Below are positions 691 through 36,200 of a stretch of DNA of 64,000 nucleotides, in pieces. The stretch is from an uncultured Chitinophaga sp. (GTDB taxonomy: Bacteria > Bacteroidota > Bacteroidia > UKL13-3). The stretch lies in assembly GCA_964355075.1 (NCBI GenBank), contig CAYHCF010000003.1:1861-65860 (forward strand). Reading direction: 5' to 3'. Position 1 is the first letter of the stretch. Each line of letters starts with the position of its first letter. The notes below the pieces were generated by a model. That model saw only the letters and a program-made list of their open reading frames with translations. It was not told where the DNA came from and did no database searches. Made by a program: the position numbers and the translations under genes.

Positions 691-3600
691 TTAATTCACC
701 TGCAATTTCTTCATATATATTGCATCTCCGGTTTGAACCTTTAACAGGTAGAATCCTTTGGGTGAAGTTTGAAGATCAATTTCTTCTGTTTGTAAATTAT
801 TTTTACTGATGGTTTTATGCATCACTTCTTTGCCCAGCATATCCAAAATAAATAGCTGAACATCTTCCTTCTGAACATCCGCCAGACGAACATAAATCAA
901 ACCATTACTTGGATTAGGATATACACTCATTAGGTTCTCAATATTCATTATATCACTAATGCCAGAAGGGCCTTCTTTTAATACATTTATTCTTCTTACC
1001 GCCTCCTCAGATTCATTGCCCGACAAATCTTTTACCTTACACCTCACACTAAATATACCAACTCCATTACCAAATGGCTTAAAATTAGAATTCAGCGGCA
1101 AATTATTTGTGCATATAAGGAATGGACGCATTTCTAAATCTGTATTGTAATTGTCTGTCAACTGCACCGGAGGATCAATGTATTCCTTCCATCTTGGAAG
1201 ATTTATTTCGGTAATGTTCAACAGGTTAATAACAGGTTTGGTGGTATCCACCACTCTTATCTCCCTGCTCACCGAATCCTGGTTTCCGGATGGATCGGTG
1301 GCAATATACCAGATGGTGTAACTGCCCAGAACATTCATGTTTACTGCGCCTTTTTTAGTTACCACGATGGTATTGGTTGGCCAGTAATTATCGGATACCG
1401 TCACCCATGGATCTGCAAATCCACTGAATACCTCTGCGGTCATCGGACTGTTTCCATTCAGGTAAATATTGGGCACTTTTGTGTCTCTTACCCGCACTTC
1501 CACTGCTACCTCATAGCCAATATTTCCGCTTCCGTCCCTTAAATTATACAAGATCAAATAAGTGCCTACCTTGTTCACATCCACCGAACCCTGCCAGGTT
1601 AATACCAGGGCATTTGCTGACCAGAAATTATCGTTTTTTCCAACTACTTTTGCCAGGTCAATGGCCGAACCAACCTGCTGAATGTAAATGTTATTGAGCG
1701 GTGGAACAATAACAGGTCTGGTAGTATCTCCAACAACGATTGCCCTGCTTGCTGTTTTGAAGAAACCAAATGCATCTGTTATCACATAACCGATGCTGTA
1801 TGCACCCAGTTTTGAAGTATCCAGATTACTGCTTACTACTACCTGACTGCTGATATCCATTCCCTGATTGTCTTTGGCAACATAACCCGGTTCAGTATAT
1901 TTTTTGTAAACTTCAACATACATGCTTGCCGAACCATTCAGGGTCAGACTCGGGCCGGTTTGATTGAGTATCACATACACGGTTCTGTTCAGGGTATCAC
2001 TCACATTTCCATACAGATCTTTTACAATATAGCGCAGGTAATTGGGTCCCACTTTGCTGGTATCTACCGTCCCAATTGTTATATATTTACTGCTGATATC
2101 TCCCTCAATATTGTCCATGGATATTACGCCCGGATCTACAAAAGCTTTGTGAATTTCGGTAGTAAAGGATGAACTGCCATTCAATGAAATGCTTGGTTTT
2201 ACGGTATCCATTGGAAAGTTCACTATATAATCTCTGAATACACCCAAAAACAAGACACTCGGATTCAGTTGGGTACCGGCATAGCTTACACCTACTCTCA
2301 ATCGGGTGCCGCCTAATTGCTGGGTGCCGCTGATGGAAATCGTATCTGTTTTCTGCAAGATATTGCTGGCCATGTCGTTCATCACCAACTCATCAATGGT
2401 AAACAAACCATCCATGTTTCTGTCTAACCATGCTTTTCTGTCCATCGGACTGCTGATACCCGGACGGGCAATCTTTAAGACATGTTTCATGCCTCTGTAC
2501 ATATTAGCTGATTGGTTGCCCAATACCATCTGATAGCAAGGCGTAAATGAATTTACTGCGGTATCTAAACCACTTTGTAACTGAACCCGGCTAATCCCGA
2601 TACTGCCATCGGCCAGACCAATATCTGTTAAACACTGTGGCTGATCGTAAGCACCAATATTGATATAATCAACCTTGATCAGCGAATCGGTACCAAATTG
2701 ATTGGTTGCAACCAGTTTTACGGTGTATTTGGTTCTTTGGGTAAAGCGGATGATCGGATTGCGGCTGGTTACCACATTGCCCACTTTTACTGTTCCCATG
2801 ATGGCCTGATAATTTCCACCGGTAATGATCCAGTTCCATACACTCGGTCCAAACAAACTCTGATCGGTAAACCGGAAGGTATCGGTATTAAATCCCTGAA
2901 CTTTATCTACTGTAAATCTTACCAAAGGTTTTTGGTTGGTAGGCAGGAACAATACATTTTTACAACTGGTATCTGCACCCAAACAGTTATAGGTTACCAA
3001 ACATATTTTACGGTAAACGGGAGAGCTTACCACAAAGGTTCTGGTGGCAGTAGGTCCTGTGGAATCATAACCGTTTAAGCCATCGGTATCCCATGAGTAT
3101 TGCATGAGGGTTCCTGTTGAGGTATTTGAATACTGAACCGGCTGGTTATGATAAATGGTATCGGGCACCACAATATGAGATTGTGGAATGCCATAACTCG
3201 CTCCCTTAATAGCCCACCTGATCGAGAAGCCTGCTGAATCATATGGATTTGGTATGGTTCCGTTGCCGGTCATAAATCTTAAAAACAAGCGGTTGCCACC
3301 CCTGATTCCATTATTGATAATGGCTTGTGGCAATACCCCCACACTGGCAGCTCCCAGTTTTCCGATGATAGGTGCGCTTTGACTCGTTCCGTTATGGATA
3401 ACGAGTGTATCGGTTGGCAACATCTTAATGCGATCCACAAATAAAAAGATACTATCGGCGCAAGGATTTAGCAGAAAGCCCGGGCAGCCCGATACCTGCG
3501 ACCTTGTATAAGAGAAGGCCGGTCCACTCGGACCAAACACAAAGCCCTGATCCCAGCTACTACTGGTTGAGCCACTGCCACTGCACATATTTACACTATT

Positions 3601-4827
3601 GATAACCTCTATATAGTTTTGCTTGCATATCGTATCCCATCCCCGGGCATTCCATACCTGGAGGCAGATGGCATATTTACCCGGAAAGCCTCCAAACAAG
3701 AGTGGGTTCTGACCGAGTGGATTAGAGAAGAAATTGGCAAAATACGGATTGGGTACATTCGTTACATCCGGCACGATCGTCCAGTACCATTGGTTTGGGC
3801 CGTAGGAGCTTATATCCACCATGGAGGCATAATCGGCAATACCGATCTTGGTTCGGGCCGAAAAGAAATTAGGTACTGGTGCTCTGCTAGGTGTATCCAC
3901 CCAAATGTATTTTACGATGCTATCGCGCAGGGAATCTCTTTTGTAGGCATTGATAGAAAGCAGGCGAACCGGCCAGAAACCTCTTCTGCCAAAAGTATAT
4001 CTGAATTTTGAACTGTATTTAGCGGTATCAATATAGAGTTGTGAAGTAAAGCCCACATTGGTTCGGGCATAACCCGGGTTCAGAGTTGTTTCTCCGGGTA
4101 GATCCCAATAACTCCGGGTTGTACTGGTACTGGTAGCTACCAAATCAAACGGACTATTTATCCAAACAGTATCGGTGGGTATGGAGCTGGTGGTGGCCTG
4201 ACTTGGGAAAAAGTTAGCGATGGGTGGAAGTAAAACATTAGAACCAATAATGGTTACGTTATAATCTTCTGTTTCGGTCCAATCAACAATATTGCCACAA
4301 TTCTCGGATTGAACGAAGGGGCCTCCGGGAGCACCGCCTCTGTAATTCTGCCAATTTCCTCTAACTCTTAAACGAGTTACTCCTGGAGTTGCGGTTACGG
4401 GTATTGTAACAGTAGTTGCCCATAATTGTGCTGTTGGTAAAGTTCCATATGCACCCGGAGAAAAATAGACAAATTCTCCCGGATCATTGAAATCCATATC
4501 AATATTAAAGTCAATCCAAACTCCAAAGCCATTTGGTTTTGTTGAACTTCCCTGAACAGTCATATTATAAGTATTTCCGGGGAATACCGAAGTAGTTTGT
4601 GCCCATCGGGTATAATATGGAGCCGTTGCATTGCAACCTGAAGCCAGATTTGATAAAGTACTGAAAGTAAAATTATTGATATAATCATTTGTGCCACAAC
4701 CGGCATAGGTGGCACTTACCGTACAATAGGGGGCGGGATCTGTTGAAATTACCTGCCCTTTTACCTGATTAAATATTGATAAAACAACGAAAATCAAGAT
4801 TGAGTAATGTATATATTTTGATTTCAT
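691..4827 (-). CDS. T9SS cargo protein, paralog A (1378 aa). Signal peptide, GEVED-type N-terminal head, PKD-like modules, four DUF5011-like Ig repeats and a type-A Por_Secre_tail C-terminal domain.
   Basis: N-terminus MKSKYIHYSILIFVVLSIF is a signal peptide. The head has GEVED hallmarks (VWIDFNIDMDFNDPGEF, TRLRVR, WTETEDYNVTI). The C-terminus (..MSVYPNPSNGLIYVRLADVQKEDVQLFILDMLGKEV..KGFYLLKVQTGDAIYMKKLQVN) matches the T9SS sorting domain. Repeats of the pattern P-I-L-NG..V..G..Y.EPG..A.D..G-D-S..V......GsY...Y...D..GN fit the DUF5011 Ig-like fold. Confidence 0.85.
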   Translation of the reverse strand: MKSKYIHYSILIFVVLSIFNQVKGQVISTDPAPYCTVSATYAGCGTNDYINNFTFSTLSNLASGCNATAPYYTRWAQTTSVFPGNTYNMTVQGSSTKPNGFGVWIDFNIDMDFNDPGEFVYFSPGAYGTLPTAQLWATTVTIPVTATPGVTRLRVRGNWQNYRGGAPGGPFVQSENCGNIVDWTETEDYNVTIIGSNVLLPPIANFFPSQATTSSIPTDTVWINSPFDLVATSTSTTRSYWDLPGETTLNPGYARTNVGFTSQLYIDTAKYSSKFRYTFGRRGFWPVRLLSINAYKRDSLRDSIVKYIWVDTPSRAPVPNFFSARTKIGIADYASMVDISSYGPNQWYWTIVPDVTNVPNPYFANFFSNPLGQNPLLFGGFPGKYAICLQVWNARGWDTICKQNYIEVINSVNMCSGSGSTSSSWDQGFVFGPSGPAFSYTRSQVSGCPGFLLNPCADSIFLFVDRIKMLPTDTLVIHNGTSQSAPIIGKLGAASVGVLPQAIINNGIRGGNRLFLRFMTGNGTIPNPYDSAGFSIRWAIKGASYGIPQSHIVVPDTIYHNQPVQYSNTSTGTLMQYSWDTDGLNGYDSTGPTATRTFVVSSPVYRKICLVTYNCLGADTSCKNVLFLPTNQKPLVRFTVDKVQGFNTDTFRFTDQSLFGPSVWNWIITGGNYQAIMGTVKVGNVVTSRNPIIRFTQRTKYTVKLVATNQFGTDSLIKVDYINIGAYDQPQCLTDIGLADGSIGISRVQLQSGLDTAVNSFTPCYQMVLGNQSANMYRGMKHVLKIARPGISSPMDRKAWLDRNMDGLFTIDELVMNDMASNILQKTDTISISGTQQLGGTRLRVGVSYAGTQLNPSVLFLGVFRDYIVNFPMDTVKPSISLNGSSSFTTEIHKAFVDPGVISMDNIEGDISSKYITIGTVDTSKVGPNYLRYIVKDLYGNVSDTLNRTVYVILNQTGPSLTLNGSASMYVEVYKKYTEPGYVAKDNQGMDISSQVVVSSNLDTSKLGAYSIGYVITDAFGFFKTASRAIVVGDTTRPVIVPPLNNIYIQQVGSAIDLAKVVGKNDNFWSANALVLTWQGSVDVNKVGTYLILYNLRDGSGNIGYEVAVEVRVRDTKVPNIYLNGNSPMTAEVFSGFADPWVTVSDNYWPTNTIVVTKKGAVNMNVLGSYTIWYIATDPSGNQDSVSREIRVVDTTKPVINLLNITEINLPRWKEYIDPPVQLTDNYNTDLEMRPFLICTNNLPLNSNFKPFGNGVGIFSVRCKVKDLSGNESEEAVRRINVLKEGPSGISDIMNIENLMSVYPNPSNGLIYVRLADVQKEDVQLFILDMLGKEVMHKTISKNNLQTEEIDLQTSPKGFYLLKVQTGDAIYMKKLQVN

Positions 4828-4921: not shown

Positions 4922-4970
4922 TGAAAAAAATTGAAAAGATCAGCTAATTGAAAAATTAGCCGATCTTTTA
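4922..4970 (-). terminator. Intrinsic terminator downstream of paralog B.
   Basis: Hairpin aaaagatcagctaatt / aattagccgatctttt (one mismatch) with a 5-nt loop, followed on the minus strand by a T7 run. Confidence 0.65.
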
Positions 4971-4984
4971 CCATATGATTTAAA

Positions 4985-7900
4985 TTAGTTCACCTGCAAT
5001 TTTTTCATATAAACACGGTCTCCGGTTTGAACCTTTAACAGGTAGAATCCTTTTGGTGAAGTTTGAAGATCGATTTCTTCTGTTTGTAAATTATTTTTGC
5101 TGATCGTTTTATGCATCACTTCTTTTCCCAGCATATCCAAAACAAATAGCTGAACATCTTCCTTCTGAACATCGGCCAAACGAACGTGAATCATTCCATT
5201 GCTCGGGTTCGGATATACACTCATCAATTTGTCAATATTCATTATGTCTGTTAAACCGCTGGGTCCTACATATAAAGAACGAATAGCCTCATCAGATTCA
5301 TTGCCCGATAAATCCTTTACTTTATAGCGAACACTGTACAAACCAATATCATGTGCAAAGGGTTTTCCATTTTGCAATGGCAAACTATTTATTGCCACCA
5401 AATTTGCCCGCATCTGTGCATCGGTATTGTAATTATCTACCAACTGTACCGGAGCATCCACATATTCTGTCCACTGAGGAACGTTCACATCGGTAATGTT
5501 CAACAGGTTTACAACAGGTTTGGTGGTATCCACCACTCTTATCTCCCTGCTCACCGAATCCTGGTTTCCGGATGGATCGGTGGCAATATACCAGATGGTA
5601 TAGCTTCCCAAAACATTCATATTCACTGCGCCTTTTTTTGTTACCACGATGGTATTGGATGGCCAGTAATTATCGGATACCGTCACCCATGGATCTGCAA
5701 ATCCACTGAATACCTCTATGGTCATCGGGCTGCTTCCATTCAGGTAAATATTGGGCGATTTTGTGTCTCTTACCCGCACTTCTACTGCTACCTCATAGCC
5801 AATATTTCCGCTTCCGTCTCTTAAATTATACAAGATCAAATAAGTGCCTACCTTGTTTACATCTACCGAACCAATCCAGGTTAATACCAAGGTATTTGCT
5901 GACCAGAAATTATCGGTTTTTCCAACTACTTTTGCCAGATCAATGGCCGAACCCACCTGTTGAATGTAAATGTTATTTAGCGGTGGAACAATAACCGGTC
6001 TTGTGGTATCTCCAACAATGATTGCCCTGCTGGCAGATTTGTAGAATCCAAATGCATCTGTGATCACATAACTGATGCTGTATGAACCCAGCTTTGAAGT
6101 ATCCAGATTACTGCTTACTACTACCTGACTGCTGATATCCATTCCCTGATTGTCTTTGGCAACATAACCCGGTTCAGTATATTTTTTGTAAACTTCAACA
6201 TACATGCTTGCCGAACCATTCAGGGTCAGACTCGGGCCGGTTTGATTGAGTATCACATACACGGTTCTGTTCAGGGTATCACTCACATTTCCATACAGAT
6301 CTTTTACAATATAGCGCAGGTAATTGGGTCCCACTTTGCTGGTATCTACCGTCCCAATTGTTATATATTTACTGCTGATATCTCCCTCAATATTGTCCAT
6401 GGATATTACGCCCGGATCTACAAAAGCTTTGTGTACTTCGGTAGCATAGGCAGAGCTGCCATTCAATGAAATGCTTGGTTTTACGGTATCCATCGGGAAG
6501 TTCACTACATAATCTCTGAATACACCCAAAAACAAGACACTTGGATTCAGTTGGGTACCTGCATAGGTAACACCTACTCTCAATCGGGTGCCTCCTAATT
6601 GCTGGGTTCCACTGATGGAAATCGTATCTATTTTCTGCAAAATATTGCTGGCCATGTCGTTCATCACCAACTCATCATTGGTAAATAAACCATCCATGTT
6701 TCTGTCTAACCAGGCTTTTCTGTCCATAGGACTGCTGATACCCGGACGCGCAATCTTTAAGACATGTTTCATGCCTCTGTACATATTAGCTGATTGGTTG
6801 CCCAATACCATCTGATAGCAAGGCGTAAATGAATTTACTGCGGTATCTAAACCACTTTGTAACTGAACCCGGCTAATCCCGATACTGCCATCGGCCAGAC
6901 CAATATCTGTTAAACACTGTGGCTGATCGTAAGCACCAATATTGATATAATCAACCTTGATCAGCGAATCGGTACCAAATTGATTGGTTGCAACCAGTTT
7001 TACGGTGTATTTGGTTCTTTGGGTAAAGCGGATGATCGGATTGCGGCTGGTTACCACATTGCCCACTTTTACTGTTCCCATGATGGCCTGATAATTTCCA
7101 CCGGTAATGATCCAGTTCCATACACTCGGTCCAAACAAACTCTGATCGGTAAACCGGAAGGTATCGGTATTAAATCCCTGAACTTTATCTACTGTAAATC
7201 TTACCAAAGGTTTTTGGTTGGTAGGCAGGAACAATACATTTTTACAACTGGTATCTGCACCCAAACAGTTATAGGTTACCAAACATATTTTACGGTAAAC
7301 GGGAGAGCTTACCACAAAGGTTCTGGTGGCAGTAGGTCCTGTGGAATCATAACCGTTTAAGCCATCGGTATCCCATGAGTATTGCATGAGGGTTCCTGTT
7401 GAGGTATTTGAATACTGAACCGGCTGGTTATGATAAATGGTATCGGGCACCACAATATGAGATTGTGGAATGCCATAACTCGCTCCCTTAATAGCCCACC
7501 TGATCGAGAAGCCTGCTGAATCATATGGATTTGGTATGGTTCCGTTGCCGGTCATAAATCTTAAAAACAAGCGGTTGCCACCCCTGATTCCATTATTGAT
7601 AATGGCTTGTGGCAATACCCCCACACTGGCAGCTCCCAGTTTTCCGATGATAGGTGCGCTTTGACTCGTTCCGTTATGGATAACGAGTGTATCGGTTGGC
7701 AACATCTTAATGCGATCCACAAATAAAAAGATACTATCGGCGCAAGGATTTAGCAGAAAGCCCGGGCAGCCCGATACCTGCGACCTTGTATAAGAGAAGG
7801 CCGGTCCACTCGGACCAAACACAAAGCCCTGATCCCAGCTACTACTGGTTGAGCCACTGCCACTGCACATATTTACACTATTGATAACCTCTATATAGTT

Positions 7901-9124
7901 TTGCTTGCATATCGTATCCCATCCCCGGGCATTCCATACCTGGAGGCAGATGGCATATTTACCCGGAAAGCCTCCAAACAAGAGTGGGTTCTGACCGAGT
8001 GGATTAGAGAAGAAATTGGCAAAATACGGATTGGGTACATTCGTTACATCCGGCACGATCGTCCAGTACCATTGGTTTGGGCCGTAGGAGCTTATATCCA
8101 CCATGGAGGCATAATCGGCAATACCGATCTTGGTTCGGGCCGAAAAGAAATTAGGCACAGGCGCTCTGCTGGGTGTATCCACCCATATGTATTTTACGAT
8201 GCTGTCGCGCAAGGAATCTCGTTTGTAATCATTAACCGAAAGCAGGCGAACCGGCCAAAATCCTCTCCTTCCAAAAGTATATCTGAATTTTGAGCTGTAT
8301 TTAGCGGTATCAATATATTGTTGTGAAGTAAAGGCTACATTGGTTCTGGCATAACCAGGGTTCAGAGTTGTTTCTCCGGGTAAATCCCAGAAACTTCTGC
8401 TTGCATTGGTACTGGTAGCAACCAAATCAAAGGGACTATTTATCCAAACGGTATCGGTAGGTGTAGAGCTGGTAGTGGCCTGACTTGGGAAGAAGTTGGC
8501 GATGGGGGGTAAAGGAATACCACCAGGTCCGGTTAATGTTTCATCTATACCAAAATCAAAAACATTTGCATCCTGACCTGAGTATGTAAATGTACAGGAT
8601 GCTGCATTAATGTAAGATCTTCTGCCAGCACCTGATCCATTATTAATGGTAAGCATTGAAGTTGTCGTTGATGCACACTGCGAAACATCCACTATTAAAC
8701 TGAGTGAAGTATTATAGGCAAAAGGTGTAGTTAACGTAATGCCCATCCAGCCGTTGGCATCAGATGAACCACTATAAGAAGGGGATGAAAATGCTGTTGT
8801 AAAAGGTCCAGTATAAATACTGGTTGGAAGGGAAGTTATTGTTGACTGACCCAGCTTAATGGTTAAGGTAGTCCAGGTTCCCGATGTAGAAGGTGTGACC
8901 TTAAAATAAACTTTGGTAATAAACCCATTATAGGCACTAATAATTTCATTGGGAGCAATTAGGTATTGGGTTTCTTTCCCAGCTGCTGTAGCCCATGGAA
9001 AACTATTGCTTGGAGAGCCAGCATTACTGTTATAATACTGGGGAGTTTGAGAATTTACGTTTAAACAAATTATGAATTGAAATACAATAAATAAATATAT
9101 GTATCTTTTGTTTATGTTTTTCAT
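4985..9124 (-). CDS. T9SS cargo protein, paralog B (1379 aa). Unrecognised Ser/Thr-rich beta-type N-terminal head of about 200 aa on the shared body, with a T9SS C-terminal domain.
   Basis: Signal peptide MKNINKRYIYLFIVFQFIICLNVNSQ. The body from LPPIANFFPSQATTSS onward is near-identical in DNA sequence to paralogs A and C. The C-terminal domain is ..VYPNPSNGMIHVRLADVQKEDVQLFVLDMLGKEV..YMKKLQVN. Confidence 0.85.
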   Translation of the reverse strand: MKNINKRYIYLFIVFQFIICLNVNSQTPQYYNSNAGSPSNSFPWATAAGKETQYLIAPNEIISAYNGFITKVYFKVTPSTSGTWTTLTIKLGQSTITSLPTSIYTGPFTTAFSSPSYSGSSDANGWMGITLTTPFAYNTSLSLIVDVSQCASTTTSMLTINNGSGAGRRSYINAASCTFTYSGQDANVFDFGIDETLTGPGGIPLPPIANFFPSQATTSSTPTDTVWINSPFDLVATSTNASRSFWDLPGETTLNPGYARTNVAFTSQQYIDTAKYSSKFRYTFGRRGFWPVRLLSVNDYKRDSLRDSIVKYIWVDTPSRAPVPNFFSARTKIGIADYASMVDISSYGPNQWYWTIVPDVTNVPNPYFANFFSNPLGQNPLLFGGFPGKYAICLQVWNARGWDTICKQNYIEVINSVNMCSGSGSTSSSWDQGFVFGPSGPAFSYTRSQVSGCPGFLLNPCADSIFLFVDRIKMLPTDTLVIHNGTSQSAPIIGKLGAASVGVLPQAIINNGIRGGNRLFLRFMTGNGTIPNPYDSAGFSIRWAIKGASYGIPQSHIVVPDTIYHNQPVQYSNTSTGTLMQYSWDTDGLNGYDSTGPTATRTFVVSSPVYRKICLVTYNCLGADTSCKNVLFLPTNQKPLVRFTVDKVQGFNTDTFRFTDQSLFGPSVWNWIITGGNYQAIMGTVKVGNVVTSRNPIIRFTQRTKYTVKLVATNQFGTDSLIKVDYINIGAYDQPQCLTDIGLADGSIGISRVQLQSGLDTAVNSFTPCYQMVLGNQSANMYRGMKHVLKIARPGISSPMDRKAWLDRNMDGLFTNDELVMNDMASNILQKIDTISISGTQQLGGTRLRVGVTYAGTQLNPSVLFLGVFRDYVVNFPMDTVKPSISLNGSSAYATEVHKAFVDPGVISMDNIEGDISSKYITIGTVDTSKVGPNYLRYIVKDLYGNVSDTLNRTVYVILNQTGPSLTLNGSASMYVEVYKKYTEPGYVAKDNQGMDISSQVVVSSNLDTSKLGSYSISYVITDAFGFYKSASRAIIVGDTTRPVIVPPLNNIYIQQVGSAIDLAKVVGKTDNFWSANTLVLTWIGSVDVNKVGTYLILYNLRDGSGNIGYEVAVEVRVRDTKSPNIYLNGSSPMTIEVFSGFADPWVTVSDNYWPSNTIVVTKKGAVNMNVLGSYTIWYIATDPSGNQDSVSREIRVVDTTKPVVNLLNITDVNVPQWTEYVDAPVQLVDNYNTDAQMRANLVAINSLPLQNGKPFAHDIGLYSVRYKVKDLSGNESDEAIRSLYVGPSGLTDIMNIDKLMSVYPNPSNGMIHVRLADVQKEDVQLFVLDMLGKEVMHKTISKNNLQTEEIDLQTSPKGFYLLKVQTGDRVYMKKLQVN

Positions 9125-9322: not shown

Positions 9323-12300
9323 TTAGTTCACCTGCAATTTTTTCATATAAACGCGGTCTCCGGTTTGAACCTTTAACAGGTAAAATCCTTTTGGTGAAGT
9401 TTGAAGATCAATTTCTTCTGTTTGTAAATTATTTTTACTGATGATTTTATGCATCACTTCTTTGCCCAACATATCCAAAACAAATACCTGAATATCTTCC
9501 TTCTGAACATCCGCCAAACGAACATGAATCATTCCATTGCTTGGGTTCGGATATACACTCATCAATTTGTCAATATTCATAATGTCTGTTAAACCGCTGG
9601 GTCCTACATATAAAGAACGAATAGCCTCATCAGATTCATTGCCCGATAAATCCTTTACTTTATAGCGAACACTGTACAAACCAATATCATGTGCAAAGGG
9701 TTTTCCATTTTGCAATGGCAAACTATTTATTGCCACCAAATTTGCCCGCATCTGTGCATCGGTATTGTAATTATCTACCAACTGTACCGGAGCATCCACA
9801 TATTCTGTCCACTGAGGAACGTTCACATCGGTAATGTTCAACAGGTTTACAACAGGTTTGGTGGTATCCACCACTCTTATCTCCCTGCTCACCGAATCCT
9901 GGTTTCCGGATGGATCGGTGGCAATATACCAGATGGTATAGCTTCCCAAAACATTCATATTCACTGCGCCTTTTTTTGTTACCACGATGGTATTGGATGG
10001 CCAGTAATTATCGGATACCGTCACCCATGGATCTGCAAATCCACTGAATACCTCTATGGTCATCGGGCTGCTTCCATTCAGGTAAATATTGGGCGATTTT
10101 GTGTCTCTTACCCGCACTTCTACTGCTACCTCATAGCCAATATTTCCGCTTCCGTCTCTTAAATTATACAAGATCAAATAAGTGCCTACCTTGTTTACAT
10201 CTACCGAACCAATCCAGGTTAATACCAAGGCATTTGCTGACCAGAAATTATCGGTTTTCCCAACTATAGTGGCCAGATCAATGGCCGAACCCACCTGCTG
10301 AATGTAAATGTTATTGAACGGTGGAACAATAACCGGTCTGGTAGTATCTCCAACAACGATTGCCCTACTAGCTGTTTTGAAGTATCCAAAGGCATCTGTT
10401 ATCACATAACCGATACTGTAAGAGCCCAGTTTTGAAGTATCCAGATTACTGCTTACTACTACCTGACTGCTGATATCCATTCCCTGATTGTCTTTGGCAA
10501 CATAACCCGGTTCAGTATATTTTTTGTAAACTTCAACATACATGCTTGCCGAACCATTCAGGGTCAGACTCGGGCCGGTTTGATTGAGTATCACATACAC
10601 GGTTCTGTTCAGGGTATCACTCACATTTCCATACAGATCTTTTACAATATAGCGCAGGTAATTGGGTCCCACTTTGCTGGTATCTACCGTCCCAATTGTT
10701 ATATATTTACTGCTGATATCTCCCTCAATATTGTCCATGGATATTACGCCCGGATCTACAAAAGCTTTGTGTACTTCGGTAGCATAGGCAGAGCTGCCAT
10801 TCAATGAAATGCTTGGTTTTACGGTATCCATCGGGAAGTTCACTACATAATCTCTGAATACACCCAAAAACAAGACACTTGGATTCAGTTGGGTACCTGC
10901 ATAGGTAACACCTACTCTCAATCGGGTGCCTCCTAATTGCTGGGTTCCACTGATGGAAATCGTATCTATTTTCTGCAAAATATTGCTGGCCATGTCGTTC
11001 ATCACCAACTCATCATTGGTAAATAAACCATCCATGTTTCTGTCTAACCAGGCTTTTCTGTCCATAGGACTGCTGATACCCGGACGCGCAATCTTTAAGA
11101 CATGTTTCATGCCTCTGTACATATTAGCTGATTGGTTGCCCAATACCATCTGATAGCAAGGCGTAAATGAATTTACTGCGGTATCTAAACCACTTTGTAA
11201 CTGAACCCGGCTAATCCCGATACTGCCATCGGCCAGACCAATATCTGTTAAACACTGTGGCTGATCGTAAGCACCAATATTGATATAATCAACCTTGATC
11301 AGCGAATCGGTACCAAATTGATTGGTTGCAACCAGTTTTACGGTGTATTTGGTTCTTTGGGTAAAGCGGATGATCGGATTGCGGCTGGTTACCACATTGC
11401 CCACTTTTACTGTTCCCATGATGGCCTGATAATTTCCACCGGTAATGATCCAGTTCCATACACTCGGTCCAAACAAACTCTGATCGGTAAACCGGAAGGT
11501 ATCGGTATTAAATCCCTGAACTTTATCTACTGTAAATCTTACCAAAGGTTTTTGGTTGGTAGGCAGGAACAATACATTTTTACAACTGGTATCTGCACCC
11601 AAACAGTTATAGGTTACCAAACATATTTTACGGTAAACGGGAGAGCTTACCACAAAGGTTCTGGTGGCAGTAGGTCCTGTGGAATCATAACCGTTTAAGC
11701 CATCGGTATCCCATGAGTATTGCATGAGGGTTCCTGTTGAGGTATTTGAATACTGAACCGGCTGGTTATGATAAATGGTATCGGGCACCACAATATGAGA
11801 TTGTGGAATGCCATAACTCGCTCCCTTAATAGCCCACCTGATCGAGAAGCCTGCTGAATCATATGGATTTGGTATGGTTCCGTTGCCGGTCATAAATCTT
11901 AAAAACAAGCGGTTGCCACCCCTGATTCCATTATTGATAATGGCTTGTGGCAATACCCCCACACTGGCAGCTCCCAGTTTTCCGATGATAGGTGCGCTTT
12001 GACTCGTTCCGTTATGGATAACGAGTGTATCGGTTGGCAACATCTTAATGCGATCCACAAATAAAAAGATACTATCGGCGCAAGGATTTAGCAGAAAGCC
12101 CGGGCAGCCCGATACCTGCGACCTTGTATAAGAGAAGGCCGGTCCACTCGGACCAAACACAAAGCCCTGATCCCAGCTACTACTGGTTGAGCCACTGCCA
12201 CTGCACATATTTACACTATTGATAACCTCTATATAGTTTTGCTTGCATATCGTATCCCATCCCCGGGCATTCCATACCTGGAGGCAGATGGCATATTTAC

Positions 12301-23983: not shown

Positions 23984-24008
23984 TTGTTTTACAAACAAAG
24001 TAAAAATA

Positions 24009-24962: not shown

Positions 24963-24974
24963 GTCAATAAAAAA

Positions 24975-27313: not shown

Positions 27314-28138
27314 ATGTACAAGGGAAATTTTGAAATAGCCGATTATCATTTTACACTCATCAATATAATTGATTTATTGTTAGTGGTATTGCTATCATTT
27401 CAGCTTTTTAAATTGTTGAAAGGTAGTTTGGCTTTCAATATTTTAATTGGAATTATCACCATTTATATGTTTTGGCTTTTGGTACAATACTTCGAAATGC
27501 CACTGTTAGCCGGTATATTAGGAGAGTTTACTAAGGTTGGTATTATTGCTGTTTTGATCGTTTTTCAGCAGGAAATCCGAAAGTTTTTGTTGATTATTGG
27601 CAATAGCTCTTTACTTGGCGAAAATAAAAGGTGGTGGAATATCTTTCCCTGGAAATGGAAAATCAAAGATGCATTCAATACGCCATTTGATGAAATCGTA
27701 GAGGCCTGCAGAGAACTGGCAAATGATAAATCAGGTGCGATTTTGGTTTTTCCTATTACCTCAGAAATGAAGTTTATCGGAGCAAGTGGCGAAATGATTG
27801 ATGCCAATATTACCAAACGACTCTTATTAAGCATTTTTAATAAAACCAGTCCTTTACATGATGGAGCCGTAATTATAGCAAATGGTAAAATTAAAGCGGC
27901 AAATTGTGTTTTACCTATTAGCGAAAACCCGCTTGTTATCAATAAATATGGGTTACGACATCTTTCGGCGATCGGTATTACCGAGCAAACTGATGCGGTT
28001 TGTTTGGTTGTAAGTGAAGAAAAAGGAATTATCAGTTATGTAAAAGAAGGGAAAATTGAAGAAGGTTTATTAGCAGAAGAAATAATTGACCGGCTCAATG
28101 AACAATTCTCTAAACAAATGGTTACCATTGGGGAGTAG
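27314..28138 (+). CDS. cdaA: Diadenylate cyclase (c-di-AMP synthase), CdaA/DacA type.
   Basis: Three N-terminal TM helices followed by a DAC domain with the LHDGAVII and RHLSAIGITE motifs. Confidence 0.85.
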   Translation: MYKGNFEIADYHFTLINIIDLLLVVLLSFQLFKLLKGSLAFNILIGIITIYMFWLLVQYFEMPLLAGILGEFTKVGIIAVLIVFQQEIRKFLLIIGNSSLLGENKRWWNIFPWKWKIKDAFNTPFDEIVEACRELANDKSGAILVFPITSEMKFIGASGEMIDANITKRLLLSIFNKTSPLHDGAVIIANGKIKAANCVLPISENPLVINKYGLRHLSAIGITEQTDAVCLVVSEEKGIISYVKEGKIEEGLLAEEIIDRLNEQFSKQMVTIGE

Positions 28139-28204
28139 CTGAATTAATTAAATAAATACGGATTCTAAATATTGTCTCGGGTAACCATATTTACCGATTG
28201 GGGA

Positions 28205-28696
28205 TTAATTTCTAAAATTTTCAAACTGAAGCGGAACCTCAAAATCCGTTTGGCGGAGATTGGCCATCAGCTCCTGTAAATCATCTATTTTTTTCCCTGT
28301 TACCCTTACCTGATCCTCATGAATTGCTCCCTGAAGTTTATTGAAGGATGCCTTGATATATGCCACAATCTTTTTTGCAGTTTCCTTTTCAAGACCTTCT
28401 CTTATTTTCAAATCTTTTAAAATGAGCTTTCCACTGGGTCTGGATTCTGCACTTAAGTCAATTGTTCTCACATCAATACCTTGTTTGCTCAATTTCCCCA
28501 AAACAATATCAATCAAAGTTTTCATTGCCATCTCTTGCTTGGCTTCAAGCTTTAATAATTTTGTTTTCTTGTCTAATTCAATCGCACAGGATTCGTCTTT
28601 TAAATCATAACGATTCAACAATTCCTTCTTTGCTGTATTAATCGCATTGTCAATTTTTTGTAAATCTATTTTACTTACAATATCAAAACTTGGCAT
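28205..28696 (-). CDS. yajQ: YajQ family nucleotide (cyclic di-GMP)-binding protein.
   Basis: A 163-aa UPF0234/YajQ signature: MPSFDIVSKIDLQ..N at the N-terminus and Q..FEVPLQFENFR at the C-terminus. Confidence 0.85.
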   Translation of the reverse strand: MPSFDIVSKIDLQKIDNAINTAKKELLNRYDLKDESCAIELDKKTKLLKLEAKQEMAMKTLIDIVLGKLSKQGIDVRTIDLSAESRPSGKLILKDLKIREGLEKETAKKIVAYIKASFNKLQGAIHEDQVRVTGKKIDDLQELMANLRQTDFEVPLQFENFRN

Positions 28697-28994
28697 AATG
28701 TTTAATTAAATGATTAATAATAAGCCTTCCGGTACATTTAAATTTAATGGCAACTGCAAAGGTAAACATTCACCATATAAAATTGCATTCTCAAACAGTT
28801 TCTACCTTTTGCTTTAAAAATTTTATTAAAGGAGGCATGAACCAACTACTTAAAGAAAAAATTGATTCGGTCAACTCTTTACTTCTTTGCCTGATACTGA
28901 AATTGTTAATCTTTTTCACAATCTGAAAAATTATTGTTGTTTTTGACTTTTTTTTTTATCTTCGGAGAATAATAATTTGTAAAATATCTCAACT

Positions 28995-31900
28995 ATGAAA
29001 AAACATATACCAATTAAATCCTTTAGTGCCCTTATTATTTTCTTTTTTTGCTTTTCTAACCTCAAAGGGCAATCATCGTTCAATATGTGTTCATCCAACC
29101 CCGGAGCAATCTATTCTCTCACAGGGTCATTTTATGATTCTGGTGGCCCATCAGCTAGCTATTTAGACAATGAAAATTGTACAGTTTTATTTACCGCCCC
29201 TCCGGGAGGTACCATTAGCTTAACATTTAATTCCTTTGCCACCGAAGCTAGTTGGGATTATATGCAGGTTTATGATGGAAACAGCATTTTGGGTATTCCT
29301 CTGCACCCTACAACCGGGGGTTCCGGTTCCTCAGGTTATGGTCCCGGATTTAATGGAACCGTAACCGGCCCTTTTACGCTGGTTGCAACTACCGGTTATA
29401 TGTTTGTTCAGTATAGAAGTGATGCCTCAGTTACTTATGCCGGTTGGAACGCCAATTGGGTGATGACTACTCCTGGTTCAGGTCTAGCCTTACCCCCCAT
29501 CGCCAACTTTTTCCCAAGTCAGGCCACCACAAGCTCCATACCCACCGATACCGTTTGGATAAACAGCCCTTTTGATTTAGTGGCTACCAGTACCAGTTCG
29601 AGCAGAAGCTATTGGGATCTACCCGGAGAAACAACTCTGAACCCGGGTTATGCCCGAACCAATGTGGGCTTTACTTCACAACTCTATATTGATACCGCTA
29701 AATACAGTTCAAAATTCAGATATACTTTTGGCAGAAGAGGTTTCTGGCCGGTTCGCCTGCTTTCTATCAATGCCTACAAACGAGATTCCCTGCGCGATAG
29801 CATCGTGAAATACATTTGGGTGGATACGCCCAGCAGAGCGCCCGTTCCTAATTTCTTTTCGGCCCGAACCAAGATCGGTATTGCGGATTATGCCTCCTTG
29901 GTGGATATCAGCTCTTACGGTCCCAACCAATGGTACTGGACGATCAATCCGGATGTAACGAATGTACCCAATCCGTATTTTGCCAATTTCTTCTCTAATC
30001 CACTCGGTCAGAACCCACTCTTGTTTGGAGGCTTTCCGGGTAAATATGCCATCTGCCTCCAGGTATGGAATGCCCGGGGATGGGATACGATATGCAAGCA
30101 AAACTATATAGAGGTTATCAATAGTGTAAATATGTGCAGTGGCAGTGGCTCAACCAGTAGTAGCTGGGATCAGGGCTTTGTGTTTGGTCCGAGTGGACCG
30201 GCCTTCTCTTATACAAGGTCGCAGGTATCGGGCTGCCCGGGCTTTCTGCTAAATCCTTGCGCCGATAGTATCTTTTTATTTGTGGATCGCATTAAGATGT
30301 TGCCAACCGATACACTCGTTATCCATAACGGAACGAGTCAAAGCGCACCTATCATCGGAAAACTGGGAGCTGCCAGTGTGGGGGTATTGCCACAAGCCAT
30401 TATCAATAATGGAATCAGGGGTGGCAACCGCTTGTTTTTAAGATTTATGACCGGCAACGGAACCATACCAAATCCATATGATTCAGCAGGCTTCTCGATC
30501 AGGTGGGCTATTAAGGGAGCGAGTTATGGCATTCCACAATCTCATATTGTGGTGCCCGATACCATTTATCATAACCAGCCGGTTCAGTATTCAAATACCT
30601 CAACAGGAACCCTCATGCAATACTCATGGGATACCGATGGCTTAAACGGTTATGATTCCACAGGACCTACTGCCACCAGAACCTTTGTGGTAAGCTCTCC
30701 CGTTTACCGTAAAATATGTTTGGTAACCTATAACTGTTTGGGTGCAGATACCAGTTGTAAAAATGTATTGTTCCTGCCTACCAACCAAAAACCTTTGGTA
30801 AGATTTACAGTAGATAAAGTTCAGGGATTTAATACCGATACCTTCCGGTTTACCGATCAGAGTTTGTTTGGACCGAGTGTATGGAACTGGATCATTACCG
30901 GTGGAAATTATCAGGCCATCATGGGAACAGTAAAAGTGGGCAATGTGGTAACCAGCCGCAATCCGATCATCCGCTTTACCCAAAGAACCAAATACACCGT
31001 AAAACTGGTTGCAACCAATCAATTTGGTACCGATTCGCTGATCAAGGTTGATTATATCAATATTGGTGCTTACGATCAGCCACAGTGTTTAACAGATATT
31101 GGTCTGGCCGATGGCAGTATCGGGATTAGCCGGGTTCAGTTGCAAAGTGGTTTGGACACCGCGGTGAATTCATTTACGCCATGTTATCAGATGGTATTGG
31201 GCAATCAGGCGGCTAATATGTACAGAGGCATGAAACATGTCTTAAAGATTGCCCGTCCGGGTATTACCAGTCCAATGGACAGAAAAGCATGGTTAGACAG
31301 AAACATGGATGGTTTGTTTACCAATGATGAGTTGGTGATGAATGACATGGCCAGCAATATTTTGCAGAAAACAGATACGATTTCCATTAGTGGAACCCAG
31401 CAATTAGGGGGCACCCGATTGAGAGTAGGTGTATCCTATGCCGGTACCCAACTGAATCCGAGTGTCTTGTTTTTGGGGGTATTCAGAGATTATATAGTGA
31501 ACTTCCCGATGGATACCGTAAAACCAAGCATTTCATTGAATGGCAGTTCATCCTTTACTACCGAAATTCACAAAGCTTTTGTAGATCCGGGCGTAATATC
31601 CATGGACAATATTGAGGGAGATATCAGCAGTAAATATATAACAATTGGGACGGTAGATACCAGCAAAGTGGGACCCAATTACCTGCGCTATATTGTAAAA
31701 GATCTGTATGGAAATGTGAGTGATACCCTGAACAGAACGGTGTATGTGATACTCAATCAAACCGGACCAAGTATCGCCCTGAGTGGTTCAGCCAGCATGT
31801 ATGTTGAAGTTTATAAAAAATATACCGAACCGGGTTATGTTGCCAAAGATAATCAGGGAATGGATATCAGCAGTCAGGTAGTAGTAAGCAGTAATTTGGA

Positions 31901-33017
31901 TACTTCAAAACTGGGTTCATACAGCATAGGATATGTAATAATAGATGCCTTTGGTTTCAGTAAATCAGCCAGTAGAGCAGTAGCAGTTGGAGATACCACA
32001 AGACCGGTTATTGTTCCACCTACGGGTAATATTTACATTCAGCAGGTTGGATCGGCCATTGACCTGGCCACTATAGTTGGGAAAACCGATAATTTCTGGT
32101 CTACAAATGCCTTGGTATTAACCTGGCTGGGTTCGGTAGATGTAAACAAGGTAGGTAGCTATGTGATCTTGTATAATTTAAGAGACGGAAGCGGAAATAT
32201 TGGCTATGAGCTTGCAGTAGAAGTGCGGGTAAGAGACACAAAAGCGCCAAATATTTACCTGAATGGAAGCACTCCGATGACCATAGAGGTATTCAGTGGA
32301 TTTGCAGATCCATGGGTGACGGTATCCGATAATTACTGGCCATCCAATACCATCGTGGTAACAAAAAAAGGCGCAGTGAACATGAATGTTTTGGGTAGCT
32401 ATACCATCTGGTATATTGCCACCGATCCATCCGGAAACCAAGATTCGGTGAGCAGGGAGATAAGAGTTGTGGATACCACCAAACCTGTTGTAAACCTGTT
32501 GAACATTACCGAGGTAAATGTTCCACAGTGGACGGAATATGTGGATGCTCCGGTGCAGTTAACAGATAATTACAATACCGATGCACAGATGCGGGCAAAT
32601 TTGGTAGTAGTGAATAATTTGCCATTACAAAATGGAAAACCCTTCGCACATGATATTGGTTTGTACAGTGTTCGCTATAAAGTTAAGGATTTGTCGGGCA
32701 ATGAATCAAAAGAAGCTGTTCGTTCCTTGAATGTTGGAGCGAGTGGCTTAACAGACATCATGAATATTGACAAATTGATGAGCGTATATCCGAACCCGAG
32801 CAATGGTTTGATTCATGTTCGATTGGCGGATGTGCAGAAGGAAGATGTTCAGGTATTTGTTTTGGATATGTTGGGCAAAGAGCTGATGCATAAAACAATC
32901 AGTAAAAATAATTTACAAACAGAAGAAATCGATCTTCAAACTTCACCCAAAGGATTCTACCTGTTAAAGGTTCAAACCGGCGACCATATTTATATGAAGA
33001 AATTGCAATTGAATTAA
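28995..33017 (+). CDS. T9SS cargo protein, paralog D (1340 aa). CUB-like N-terminal head on the shared body, with a T9SS C-terminal domain.
   Basis: Signal peptide MKKHIPIKSFSALIIFFFCFSNLKGQ. The head (CSSNPGAIYSLTGSFYDSGGPSASYLDNENCTVLF..FNSFATEASWDYMQVYDGNS..YMFVQYRSDASVTYAGWNANW) fits the CUB pattern. The body is the reverse complement of paralogs A-C. The C-terminal domain ends ..YMKKLQLN. Confidence 0.85.
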   Translation: MKKHIPIKSFSALIIFFFCFSNLKGQSSFNMCSSNPGAIYSLTGSFYDSGGPSASYLDNENCTVLFTAPPGGTISLTFNSFATEASWDYMQVYDGNSILGIPLHPTTGGSGSSGYGPGFNGTVTGPFTLVATTGYMFVQYRSDASVTYAGWNANWVMTTPGSGLALPPIANFFPSQATTSSIPTDTVWINSPFDLVATSTSSSRSYWDLPGETTLNPGYARTNVGFTSQLYIDTAKYSSKFRYTFGRRGFWPVRLLSINAYKRDSLRDSIVKYIWVDTPSRAPVPNFFSARTKIGIADYASLVDISSYGPNQWYWTINPDVTNVPNPYFANFFSNPLGQNPLLFGGFPGKYAICLQVWNARGWDTICKQNYIEVINSVNMCSGSGSTSSSWDQGFVFGPSGPAFSYTRSQVSGCPGFLLNPCADSIFLFVDRIKMLPTDTLVIHNGTSQSAPIIGKLGAASVGVLPQAIINNGIRGGNRLFLRFMTGNGTIPNPYDSAGFSIRWAIKGASYGIPQSHIVVPDTIYHNQPVQYSNTSTGTLMQYSWDTDGLNGYDSTGPTATRTFVVSSPVYRKICLVTYNCLGADTSCKNVLFLPTNQKPLVRFTVDKVQGFNTDTFRFTDQSLFGPSVWNWIITGGNYQAIMGTVKVGNVVTSRNPIIRFTQRTKYTVKLVATNQFGTDSLIKVDYINIGAYDQPQCLTDIGLADGSIGISRVQLQSGLDTAVNSFTPCYQMVLGNQAANMYRGMKHVLKIARPGITSPMDRKAWLDRNMDGLFTNDELVMNDMASNILQKTDTISISGTQQLGGTRLRVGVSYAGTQLNPSVLFLGVFRDYIVNFPMDTVKPSISLNGSSSFTTEIHKAFVDPGVISMDNIEGDISSKYITIGTVDTSKVGPNYLRYIVKDLYGNVSDTLNRTVYVILNQTGPSIALSGSASMYVEVYKKYTEPGYVAKDNQGMDISSQVVVSSNLDTSKLGSYSIGYVIIDAFGFSKSASRAVAVGDTTRPVIVPPTGNIYIQQVGSAIDLATIVGKTDNFWSTNALVLTWLGSVDVNKVGSYVILYNLRDGSGNIGYELAVEVRVRDTKAPNIYLNGSTPMTIEVFSGFADPWVTVSDNYWPSNTIVVTKKGAVNMNVLGSYTIWYIATDPSGNQDSVSREIRVVDTTKPVVNLLNITEVNVPQWTEYVDAPVQLTDNYNTDAQMRANLVVVNNLPLQNGKPFAHDIGLYSVRYKVKDLSGNESKEAVRSLNVGASGLTDIMNIDKLMSVYPNPSNGLIHVRLADVQKEDVQVFVLDMLGKELMHKTISKNNLQTEEIDLQTSPKGFYLLKVQTGDHIYMKKLQLN

Positions 33018-33096: not shown

Positions 33097-33290
33097 AAAA
33101 TGGATCAGTATCGACTCGGTTTTCTTAATTATTTATTAAAATTTTAGAAAGTTAATTTGCCTATAAGATTGTTTTTAAGATAGTTGAGTTTCATTTCGAT
33201 TCGAAATCAAGATTTGACTTTTGTAAGATTGTATTGATGTTTCAATTTGAAAAGTTTATATTTGAAATCCATTTGAGAAAATTAAAGATT

Positions 33291-36200
33291 ATGAAAAAAC
33301 AAATACAAACCGGTTTACTTTTATTATTGCTAATTTTTAGCTTAAGTTCCGGTAAACTTTATGCTCAATACTGTCTCACAACAGGTGCAACATCTTACTT
33401 TGATGATGAGATTGCAAGAGTTTATATTATAGGGGCGTTTGGAACCTCTATTAACAATCCAACAACTTGTTATACAACGGTACCGCAATATGTTGATTTT
33501 ACAAGTACCTTGGCCCCACTTTCATTAGTGCCGGGGCAAACCTATTCCATGACCATTGATTTAACTCAATGCAGCGGTTTTTTCTATTCCAATTCTTGTA
33601 ATATTTGGATTGATTTTAACAGGAATTTCACTTTTGATGCTACCGAATTGATTCAGAATGTTGTTGCGAATTCAACTTTCCCCTCTACCCATACTTTTAC
33701 TTTTACTGTTCCTACCACAGCAACTTTAGGGGCATCCCGCATGCGTTTGGTGGATGTTGAAGGAGGTACTTCGGCATCTATTACACCTTGTGTTACTTAC
33801 ACCTGGGGAGAAACTGAGGATTATGCAGTTAATCTGGTAAATTCTTCCGGCGGAGCAATTTTGCCGCCTATCGCAAACTTTTTCCCAAGTCAGGCCACTA
33901 CGAGCTCCATCCCCACTGATACCGTTTGGATAAATAGCCCCTTTGATTTAGTTTCTACGAGCACCAGTTCCAGTAGAAGTTATTGGGATCTACCCGGAGA
34001 AACAACTTTGAACCCGGGTTATGCCAGAACCAATGTAGCCTTTACTTCACAACAATATATTGATACGGCTAAATACAGCTCAAGATTTAGATATACTTTT
34101 GGCAGAAGAGGTTTCTGGCCGGTTCGCCTGCTTTCCATCAATGATTTCAAACGAGATTCCCTGCGTGATAGCATCGTAAAATACATTTGGGTGGATACAC
34201 CCAGCAGAGCACCTGTGCCTAATTTCTTTTCGGCCCGAACCAAGATCGGTATTGCGGATTATGCCTCCTTGGTGGATATCAGCTCTTACGGTCCCAACCA
34301 ATGGTACTGGACGATCAATCCGGATGTAACGAATGTACCCAATCCGTATTTTGCCAATTTCTTCTCTAATCCACTCGGTCAGAACCCACTCTTGTTTGGA
34401 GGCTTTCCGGGTAAATATGCCATCTGCCTCCAGGTATGGAATGCCCGGGGATGGGATACGATATGCAAGCAAAACTATATAGAGGTTATCAATAGTGTAA
34501 ATATGTGCAGTGGCAGTGGCTCAACCAGTAGTAGCTGGGATCAGGGCTTTGTGTTTGGTCCGAGTGGACCGGCCTTCTCTTATACAAGGTCGCAGGTATC
34601 GGGCTGCCCGGGCTTTCTGCTAAATCCTTGCGCCGATAGTATCTTTTTATTTGTGGATCGCATTAAGATGTTGCCAACCGATACACTCGTTATCCATAAC
34701 GGAACGAGTCAAAGCGCACCTATCATCGGAAAACTGGGAGCTGCCAGTGTGGGGGTATTGCCACAAGCCATTATCAATAATGGAATCAGGGGTGGCAACC
34801 GCTTGTTTTTAAGATTTATGACCGGCAACGGAACCATACCAAATCCATATGATTCAGCAGGCTTCTCGATCAGGTGGGCTATTAAGGGAGCGAGTTATGG
34901 CATTCCACAATCTCATATTGTGGTGCCCGATACCATTTATCATAACCAGCCGGTTCAGTATTCAAATACCTCAACAGGAACCCTCATGCAATACTCATGG
35001 GATACCGATGGCTTAAACGGTTATGATTCCACAGGACCTACTGCCACCAGAACCTTTGTGGTAAGCTCTCCCGTTTACCGTAAAATATGTTTGGTAACCT
35101 ATAACTGTTTGGGTGCAGATACCAGTTGTAAAAATGTATTGTTCCTGCCTACCAACCAAAAACCTTTGGTAAGATTTACAGTAGATAAAGTTCAGGGATT
35201 TAATACCGATACCTTCCGGTTTACCGATCAGAGTTTGTTTGGACCGAGTGTATGGAACTGGATCATTACCGGTGGAAATTATCAGGCCATCATGGGAACA
35301 GTAAAAGTGGGCAATGTGGTAACCAGCCGCAATCCGATCATCCGCTTTACCCAAAGAACCAAATACACCGTAAAACTGGTTGCAACCAATCAATTTGGTA
35401 CCGATTCGCTGATCAAGGTTGATTATATCAATATTGGTGCTTACGATCAGCCACAGTGTTTAACAGATATTGGTCTGGCCGATGGCAGTATCGGGATTAG
35501 CCGGGTTCAGTTGCAAAGTGGTTTGGACACCGCGGTGAATTCATTTACGCCATGTTATCAGATGGTATTGGGCAATCAGGCGGCTAATATGTACAGAGGC
35601 ATGAAACATGTCTTAAAGATTGCCCGTCCGGGTATTACCAGTCCAATGGACAGAAAAGCATGGTTAGACAGAAACATGGATGGTTTGTTTACCAATGATG
35701 AGTTGGTGATGAATGACATGGCCAGCAATATTTTGCAGAAAACAGATACGATTTCCATTAGTGGAACCCAGCAATTAGGGGGCACCCGATTGAGAGTAGG
35801 TGTATCCTATGCCGGTACCCAACTGAATCCGAGTGTCTTGTTTTTGGGTGTATTCAGAGATTATATAGTGAACTTTCCAATGGATACCGTAAAACCAAGC
35901 ATTTCATTGAATGGCAGTTCATCCTTTACTACCGAAATTCACAAAGCTTTTGTAGATCCGGGCGTAATATCCATGGACAATATTGAGGGAGATATCAGCA
36001 GTAAATATATAACAATTGGGACGGTAGATACCAGCAAAGTGGGACCCAATTACCTGCGCTATATTGTAAAAGATCTGTATGGAAATGTGAGTGATACCCT
36101 GAACAGAACGGTGTATGTGATACTCAATCAAACCGGACCAAGTATCGCCCTGAGTGGTTCAGCCAGCATGTATGTTGAAGTTTATAAAAAATATACCGAA

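Follow-up and report, generated by a model that had tools for sequence, protein, structure and literature searches.

Five paralogous genes with an identical internal block in an uncultured Chitinophaga sp.: probable segmental concerted evolution of old paralogs by gene conversion

The five-gene array and its identical block

The 64-kb window analysed here (the whole stretch of 64,000 nucleotides, positions 1,861 to 65,860 of contig CAYHCF010000003.1, assembly GCA_964355075.1, from an uncultured Chitinophaga sp.) contains five full-length paralogous open reading frames (ORFs) of 1,340-1,384 amino acids (aa), referred to as A to E, which lie in two oppositely oriented clusters (A-B-C on the minus strand, D-E on the plus strand); by string comparison, no sixth copy was found in the window. 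Paralog A (691-4827, minus strand, 1378 aa), delimited by its ORF and annotated with Pfam and NCBIfam, combines a GEVED-type head with the common stalk of Ig-, PKD- and CUB-like domains and a type A C-terminal sorting domain of the type IX secretion system (T9SS). Paralog B (4985-9124, minus strand, 1379 aa) has a head without a Pfam family, which is weakly orthologous to the heads of ME1 (at locus L004), L002 and L009 in related genomes, while the head of paralog C (9323-13399, minus strand, 1358 aa) is DUF7402-like, under the Pfam cut-off, and has its ortholog in ME2. Paralog D (28995-33017, plus strand, 1340 aa) carries a CUB head, has a positional and head ortholog in L008 and adjoins a DUF520 gene. 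Paralog E (33234-37388, plus strand, 1384 aa when read from TTG) carries a GEVED head that is 32% identical to that of A, has orthologs in L022 and L013/L015, and adjoins tilS as in the relatives; the ORF list starts it at the TTG at 33234, and the likelier start is probably the ATG at 33291 (MKKQIQTGLLLLLLIF...), which would give a signal-peptide-like N-terminus. In a nucleotide alignment, the first ~800 nt of the five genes could not be aligned, and the other ~3.5 kb were 87-91% identical overall. Homology among A-E begins inside the ORFs, at about residue 160-200, and ends within a few bases of the stop codon, and the upstream and intergenic DNA of the five copies is unrelated. Alignment of the five upstream regions revealed no common promoter or other homology, and a sigma-70 promoter scan, a model ill-suited to Bacteroidota, stayed at or under the shuffle expectation.

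Direct string comparison showed that 1,193 bp are the same exact string in all five copies: 2579-3771 in A (minus strand, residues 353-749 of the protein), 6861-8053 in B (minus strand), 11199-12391 in C (minus strand), 29949-31141 in D (plus strand) and 34320-35512 in E (plus strand). With the 397 variable columns placed uniformly over the 3,518 columns of the alignable body, an invariant run of at least 1,193 has a probability of 1.6e-69, and a chance origin of the block is excluded. Its edges are sharp: 8-11 differences are fixed in the 50-70 bp next to it. A second invariant stretch of 170 bp is present in all five copies at 1982-2151 in A (minus strand), 6264-6433 in B, 10602-10771 in C, 31569-31738 in D and 35940-36109 in E. 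The initial annotation had described a block of 1.25-1.3 kb, identical or nearly so in all five copies. Near-identity does extend over the ranges that it gave, and the length holds for A, B and C (identical over 1,292 bp) and for D and E (identical over 1,261 bp) taken separately, but not across all five, where the strict core ends at 1,193 bp; 10 positions, all past base 1193, separate the two groups, and because most of these are synonymous, the protein remains identical through FTPCYQMVLGNQ. The head-side edge had been placed correctly within 1-5 bp, and the tail-side edge ~70-100 bp too far.

Synonymous divergence (dS) was calculated per segment by Nei-Gojobori counting. Within the block there are no differences over 270 synonymous sites in any of the ten pairs, as the initial annotation had supposed for the centre of the genes. 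In the 150 codons upstream of the block dS is 0.28-0.60, and in the 142 codons downstream it is 0.19-0.35, save for B/C (0) and D/E (0.03); dN/dS lies at ~0.05-0.2 wherever both could be measured. The last Ig/HYR-like repeat of A (881-1210, minus strand) differs from B-E by 30-34% of amino acids and ~30% of nucleotides, close to the 35% first estimated, and is synonymously saturated (dS 1.7-2.7). Divergence is not uniform along the genes: the same pairs of genes range in dS from 0 to more than 1.7, and identity is arranged in discrete tracts of 171-1,961 bp.

Outside the block, the copies form a mosaic. All 10 possible partitions of two copies against three occur among 152 informative sites (BC 43, DE 42, AE 16, AB 14, BE 11, AD 9, AC 8, CE 4, CD 3, BD 2), which bears out the chequerboard pattern proposed for the flanks. 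The three substitutions that had been cited as shared by different subsets (QSANMY/QAANMY, SSPMD/TSPMD, LNGSAS/LSGSAS) are poor examples of it, as all three split ABC from DE. Adjacent segments support conflicting phylogenies; in 44.5% of the informative site pairs the two sites fit no common tree, and the four-gamete test gives a Hudson-Kaplan minimum of 48 recombination events (Rm), both counts being affected by the multiple hits discussed below. Incompatibility between neighbouring sites was 0.328 compared to 0.445 after permutation, and none of 2,000 permutations of site order reached the observed value, showing that compatible sites cluster. The mosaic is seen also at scales far below the block length, in regions that are not identical.

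The longest pairwise tract links B and C over 1,961 bp (B 6093-8053, minus strand; C 10431-12391), followed by D and E over 1,631 bp (D 29847-31477, plus strand; E 34218-35848) and A and B over 1,406 bp (A 2468-3873, minus strand; B 6750-8155). Further tracts that contain the block join A and C (1,304 bp) and C with D and with E (1,256 bp each), and the pairs A-D, A-E, B-D and B-E have only the 1,193-bp core in common there. The ends of these tracts around the block differ from pair to pair. Directly left of the block C sides with D and E, for 63 bp, and directly right of it with A and B. Several pairwise concordant tracts were significant, among them one of 171 bp between A (3940-4110, minus strand) and D (29610-29780) that includes 31 sites variable among the other copies; as these two genes lie on opposite strands and 25 kb apart, we read the tract as an exchange between the two inverted clusters.

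Heads and bodies in related genomes

The relatives available for comparison are Bacteroidia metagenome-assembled genomes (MAGs), several of them from freshwater lakes by sample name, referred to as Tobar, ME, C3, MaH, AE, RE and EUL. The nearest relatives show 64-71% aa identity over the block, with one partial match at 75%. In the scan of GTDB representatives the best identity over the full block was 69-70% (73% for one partial match); an exact-protein look-up had no hit, a metagenome scan gave only two loci, both at 68%, and a protein database search only 16 homologs, mostly fragments. The family is rare in the collections searched. The relatives have the same architecture (head, block and ~625 further residues), and the head-to-body junction is at the same place in all of them. 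Their arrays are bordered by DUF520 (itself preceded by CdaA, FolP, MauE and shikimate kinase) on one side and by TilS-OstA-PKD protein genes on the other, which is the position of D and E in the window. L004 (8858-21151 of the ME2018 MAG contig JBILVK010000018.1) holds a tandem array of three paralogs whose heads all differ and whose bodies are 66-96% identical, and this array follows the DUF520 neighbourhood that also precedes D and E; an extra 363-aa ORF (7681-8772), missing from that position in the window, separates DUF520 from the first copy. In the relatives the array was seen on the DUF520-TilS side only, and the window has in addition the inverted A-B-C cluster beside the CoA-transferase gene.

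Heads, compared over the first 200 residues, pair across genomes. D matches L008 at 62% aa identity, E matches L022 at 68% and L013/L015 at 35%, C matches ME2 at 41% over 185 residues, and B matches ME1 at 31%; among the relatives themselves, the heads of L001 (Tobar) and L012 (ME) are 74% identical and those of L002 (Tobar) and L004 (ME) 55%. The block follows the genome instead. Its nucleotide identity among paralogs of one genome is 100% in the window, 85-93% in Tobar, 90-95% in ME, 84.5% in C3 and 71.5% in MaH, figures in which divergence among MAG paralogs is biased upward by assemblies broken at the repeats. Between the genomes of the window, Tobar, ME and C3 it is at most 76%, and the MaH copies reach at most 60% to any other genome. 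L001 and L012 have the same head and a block 72% identical, whereas L001 and L002 have unrelated heads and a block 85% identical. In four of the five lineages block dS stays at 0-0.86 within a genome (2.2 in MaH), and it ranges from 1.6 to saturated between genomes, where the proportion of synonymous differences (pS) is 0.66-0.77 in four of five comparisons and 0.51 for the nearest, partial relative, L018. Within the block, paralogs of one genome are thus more alike than orthologs of different genomes. Tobar and ME again have the central region as the part most alike among paralogs, and their C-terminal third is ~70% identical within a genome, about as between genomes.

At 12 of the 19 loci of relatives, the short-read contig ends inside the gene (L002, L005, L007, L008, L012, L014, L016, L017, L018 and L019, also L006 and L011), in 6 of the 12 inside the block. 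These contig ends indicate that near-identical repeats are recurrent at this spot in the lineage. The 1,496-nt contig of L005 is essentially the block alone. The gene family is fragmented systematically, and probably under-counted, in metagenome bins.

Concerted evolution and its alternatives

We consider it very probable that these genes are old paralogs undergoing segmental concerted evolution by interlocus gene conversion, the inverted clusters included. The genes, with their heads and chromosomal position, are older than the divergence of genomes now synonymously saturated with respect to each other, and the stalk is nevertheless identical or almost identical within this one genome, which points to concerted evolution; tracts that are patchy and nested point to gene conversion. 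Homology that starts inside the ORFs, together with unrelated intergenic DNA, argues for old genes and not for a fresh segmental duplication. The initial annotation had already favoured repeated gene conversion over a single recent duplication, a preference that the heterogeneity of dS, the differing tract ends, the clustering of compatible sites and the grouping of bodies by genome now support.

In such a process, stalk DNA would be homogenised repeatedly by non-reciprocal homologous recombination, presumably RecA-dependent, with conversion linking adjacent tandem copies and also reaching across the 16-30 kb that separate the inverted clusters. Tracts that overlap but end at different points may recently have swept the central region of every copy, and the 1,193-bp core would be their intersection. 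Tracts would be barred from the heads, as these have no homology to each other, and the C-terminal repeats may be converted less often, the last repeat of A having escaped. The enzymes carrying out the recombination, the direction and number of the events, and whether homogeneity is itself selected are matters of inference, whereas the identity, the mosaic, the dS of 0 and the greater likeness of paralogs than of orthologs are shown directly.

Several points limit this interpretation or weigh against it. A closely related strain was not found among GTDB representatives, in the metagenome scan or in the protein database, so that conversion was not caught in progress. The Hudson-Kaplan minimum from the four-gamete test (Rm = 48) and the count of incompatible pairs are both inflated by multiple hits at synonymous sites (dS 0.3-0.6). 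In the clade of AE, RE and EUL, closely related genomes retain two orthologous groups, an exception which indicates that homogenisation is neither universal nor instantaneous. The comparisons between genomes rest on MAGs, in which binning errors are possible; against such errors, one ME contig carries three copies, and two Tobar contigs match both syntenic ends of a single array. Finally, the exact identity of the block could be slightly overstated by polishing of repeats.

An alternative explanation is that the stalk was recently duplicated or shuffled as a domain, with existing unrelated heads grafted on, and that identity merely reflects youth. The heads are indeed unrelated to each other, homology starts abruptly inside the ORF and the tandem arrangement favours duplication, but body dS is not uniform (0 to more than 1.7), the intergenic DNA was not duplicated, and every relative joins head and body at the same point. 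Genomes that are synonymously saturated still agree in head type and position, so the fusions predate those genomes, and this cross-genome head orthology already largely refutes recent duplication or grafting, which we regard as very unlikely. Less probable again is an assembly or polishing artefact, in which the central parts collapsed to one consensus through multi-mapped short reads or the flanks were mis-joined. Repeats of this kind do break or confuse assemblies, as seen in the relatives' contigs that end in the block and as reported for hagA, rgpA and kgp (PMC5266723). Such an artefact fits poorly with edges as sharp as those of the block, with distinct and nested ends of pairwise tracts, with a mosaic that continues at much smaller scales in non-identical regions and with a gene order around the copies that is colinear with the relatives; moreover, long reads easily span a 1.2-kb repeat, and a short-read assembly could not have joined the five copies. 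We give the least credence of all to selection that keeps the block identical, either for a common partner or co-assembly or as a crossover substrate for head-swapping or an inversion switch. Tobar and ME paralogs, too, are most alike in this central region, the inverted clusters flank a 15.6-kb segment, and dN/dS is low throughout; however, selection on the protein cannot erase synonymous differences, so conversion would still be required, and the block edges lie off the predicted domain borders. The 63-bp match of C with D and E on the left flank resembles a conversion tract and not a crossover, and no recombinase gene was found among ORFs of at least 150 aa outside the paralogs, with 54752-55228 and 61592-62593 unscanned.

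Three narrower candidates were rejected. Unequal crossing-over as the sole homogeniser disagrees with heads that are unique and conserved across genomes and with identical tracts that link genes on opposite strands; as the A=D and C=D=E tracts do so, it would need an inversion. Selection at the nucleotide level for block identity disagrees with synonymous sites in the block that are saturated between genomes. A crossover (inversion) behind the switch in affinity of C across the block is unsupported, as C matches D and E for just 63 bp on the left.

GC content at third codon positions (GC3) may hold a further trace of conversion. It is 0.443 (or 0.44) in the homogenised bodies (taken as ~691-4221, 4985-8503, 9323-12841, 29499-33017 and 33870-37388) compared to 0.30 in the heads; 19 neighbouring genes have 0.28-0.40, and GC3 goes up from the point at which homology starts. 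The closest relative, L018, has an excess of +0.084 over its neighbours, and more distant, less homogenised relatives have one of ~0 or below. This excess fits GC-biased gene conversion, with a higher-GC origin or selection on codon usage as alternatives. Separately, 1.2-kb identical tracts in inverted orientation (within 9323-13399 and 28995-33017) flank the 15.6-kb housekeeping segment, and a RecA-mediated inversion of that segment (13400-28994) is plausible. It is doubtful, in our estimate, that the stalk carries a footprint of GC-biased conversion, or that the inverted blocks act as a RecA-dependent switch that flips the 15.6-kb segment and re-assorts heads and C-terminal stalks.

Predicted surface proteins, genomic surroundings and known systems

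All five proteins carry the sorting domain above the curated cut-offs (PF18962, 51-54 bits with a cut-off of 27; TIGR04183, 46-48 bits with a cut-off of 23), and hydrophobic N-termini are visible in the five translations. Components of the secretion machinery are encoded in the same window, namely PorV (55228-56505), a PorU-like C25 peptidase with a sorting domain of its own (56550-60425) and PorP/SprF (60562-61557). Judged by these sequence features, A-E are predicted T9SS cargo and cell-surface proteins. Their common stalk comprises ~1,180 residues of beta-sandwich domains with the type A sorting domain at its end, and Pfam recognises PKD, GEVED, four Bact_surface_Ig-like and HYR-like domains in the common body. 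The block has almost no Pfam match. An AlphaFold model renders it as a string of beta-sandwich domains (mean predicted local distance difference test, pLDDT, 72.7), predicted to comprise the end of one PKD-like domain, a CUB-like domain, whose call was read from sequence motifs, and two PKD-like domains. A Foldseek search with this model returned only generic strings of Ig-like domains, from which no specific function follows, and a PDB sequence search with the block gave no match. The block edges fall within predicted domains and not at their borders, which fits a process acting on DNA. Read most simply, A-E would be surface proteins that carry different binding tips on one common stalk.

The 15.6-kb housekeeping segment between the inverted clusters (13400-28994) encodes a CoA-transferase, PlsY, a 1461-aa ORF, TIM, shikimate kinase, FolP, CdaA and DUF520. 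The 1,461-aa ORF (15541-19926, minus strand) has no Pfam match at E <= 0.001 and shares 4 nt with the start of the PlsY-like gene. A strong terminator-like hairpin (4934-4969, minus strand), made of a 16-bp stem and then a T run, lies in the gap immediately after B and before A and suggests that the tandem genes may be separate transcription units. Two 157-aa ORFs (5351-5824 and 9689-10162, both on the plus strand) overlap the 3' parts of B and C in antisense; both are most likely spurious and duplicated by their position inside the repeat. Beyond paralog E, a PKD-repeat protein of 2,845 aa (40451-48988, plus strand), which also has a T9SS sorting domain, stands outside the five-copy family and has counterparts of 61-65% aa identity beside TilS-OstA in the relatives. 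The T9SS core cluster (55228-61557) is ~18 kb from paralog E, and an AddA-like helicase-nuclease is encoded at 51432-54680.

Comparable patterns have been described in other bacteria. The babA/babB and homA/homB genes of H. pylori undergo segmental concerted evolution, and RecA-dependent intragenomic gene conversion generates chimaeras among them (PMC3960876). As in those genes, one part of the A-E genes is strongly similar within a genome while another diverges. The H. pylori pairs, however, occupy 2-3 dispersed loci, where it is the 3' segment that is homogenised and the middle that varies, whereas here five genes in two inverted clusters are homogenised in the centre; their products are autotransporter-like porin-family proteins (Hop/Hom) of a host-associated pathogen, whereas A-E are predicted T9SS cargo of freshwater Bacteroidia. 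The tandem Ig-repeat genes ligA and ligB of Leptospira are near-identical over ~2.1 kb (-266 to +1890) and then diverge, for which conversion aided by the tandem arrangement has been inferred (PMC7821625). They resemble the present array in being tandem genes for surface proteins with Ig-like repeats and a long near-identical stretch, but that stretch covers the promoter and 5' end of two copies, while here it is internal to five copies, whose 5' ends and promoters are unrelated. In P. gingivalis, the identical adhesin repeats of the T9SS cargo genes rgpA, kgp and hagA break short-read assemblies and undergo modular rearrangement (PMC5266723). Our array likewise consists of probable T9SS cargo genes with identical repeats, but the P. 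gingivalis genes lie at dispersed loci and encode cleaved adhesin domains and DUF2436, compared to PKD, CUB-like, GEVED and Bact_surface_Ig-like domains here, and their only sequence relationship to the array is in the C-terminal sorting domain.

In the pilE/pilS, vlsE and msp2 systems, variable segments are moved from silent truncated cassettes into a single expression site. Non-reciprocal recombination between paralogous surface-protein sequences is common to them and to the array, but here each of the five copies is a complete ORF with a start and an upstream region of its own, and exchange affects the conserved part. Antigenic variation from silent cassettes of the pilE/pilS type was rejected on these grounds, all five genes being full-length, with hydrophobic leaders and unrelated upstream regions. 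A site-specific invertible shufflon was rejected as well, as the inverted repeats are the 3.1-3.5-kb gene bodies themselves and not short recognition repeats. No recombinase family was found among the ORFs of at least 150 aa outside the paralogs, in a scan that left out 54752-55228, 61592-62593 and the ORFs below 150 aa.

The process is a known one and no new mechanism is proposed; the array is a new, clear example of it. As a case of bacterial segmental concerted evolution it is unusually clean, with five copies, a core without a single difference, saturated flanks within these very genes and orthologs that attest to their old age. It explains the near-constant fragmentation of this gene family in short-read metagenome bins, which matters for the annotation of T9SS cargo in MAGs. 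If either the GC-bias or the switch proposal were true, the array would be a natural reporter of recombination bias or dynamics in an uncultured freshwater Bacteroidia lineage. For the family itself, it shows how secreted surface proteins can keep a common stalk while holding different tips, whose role would be binding.

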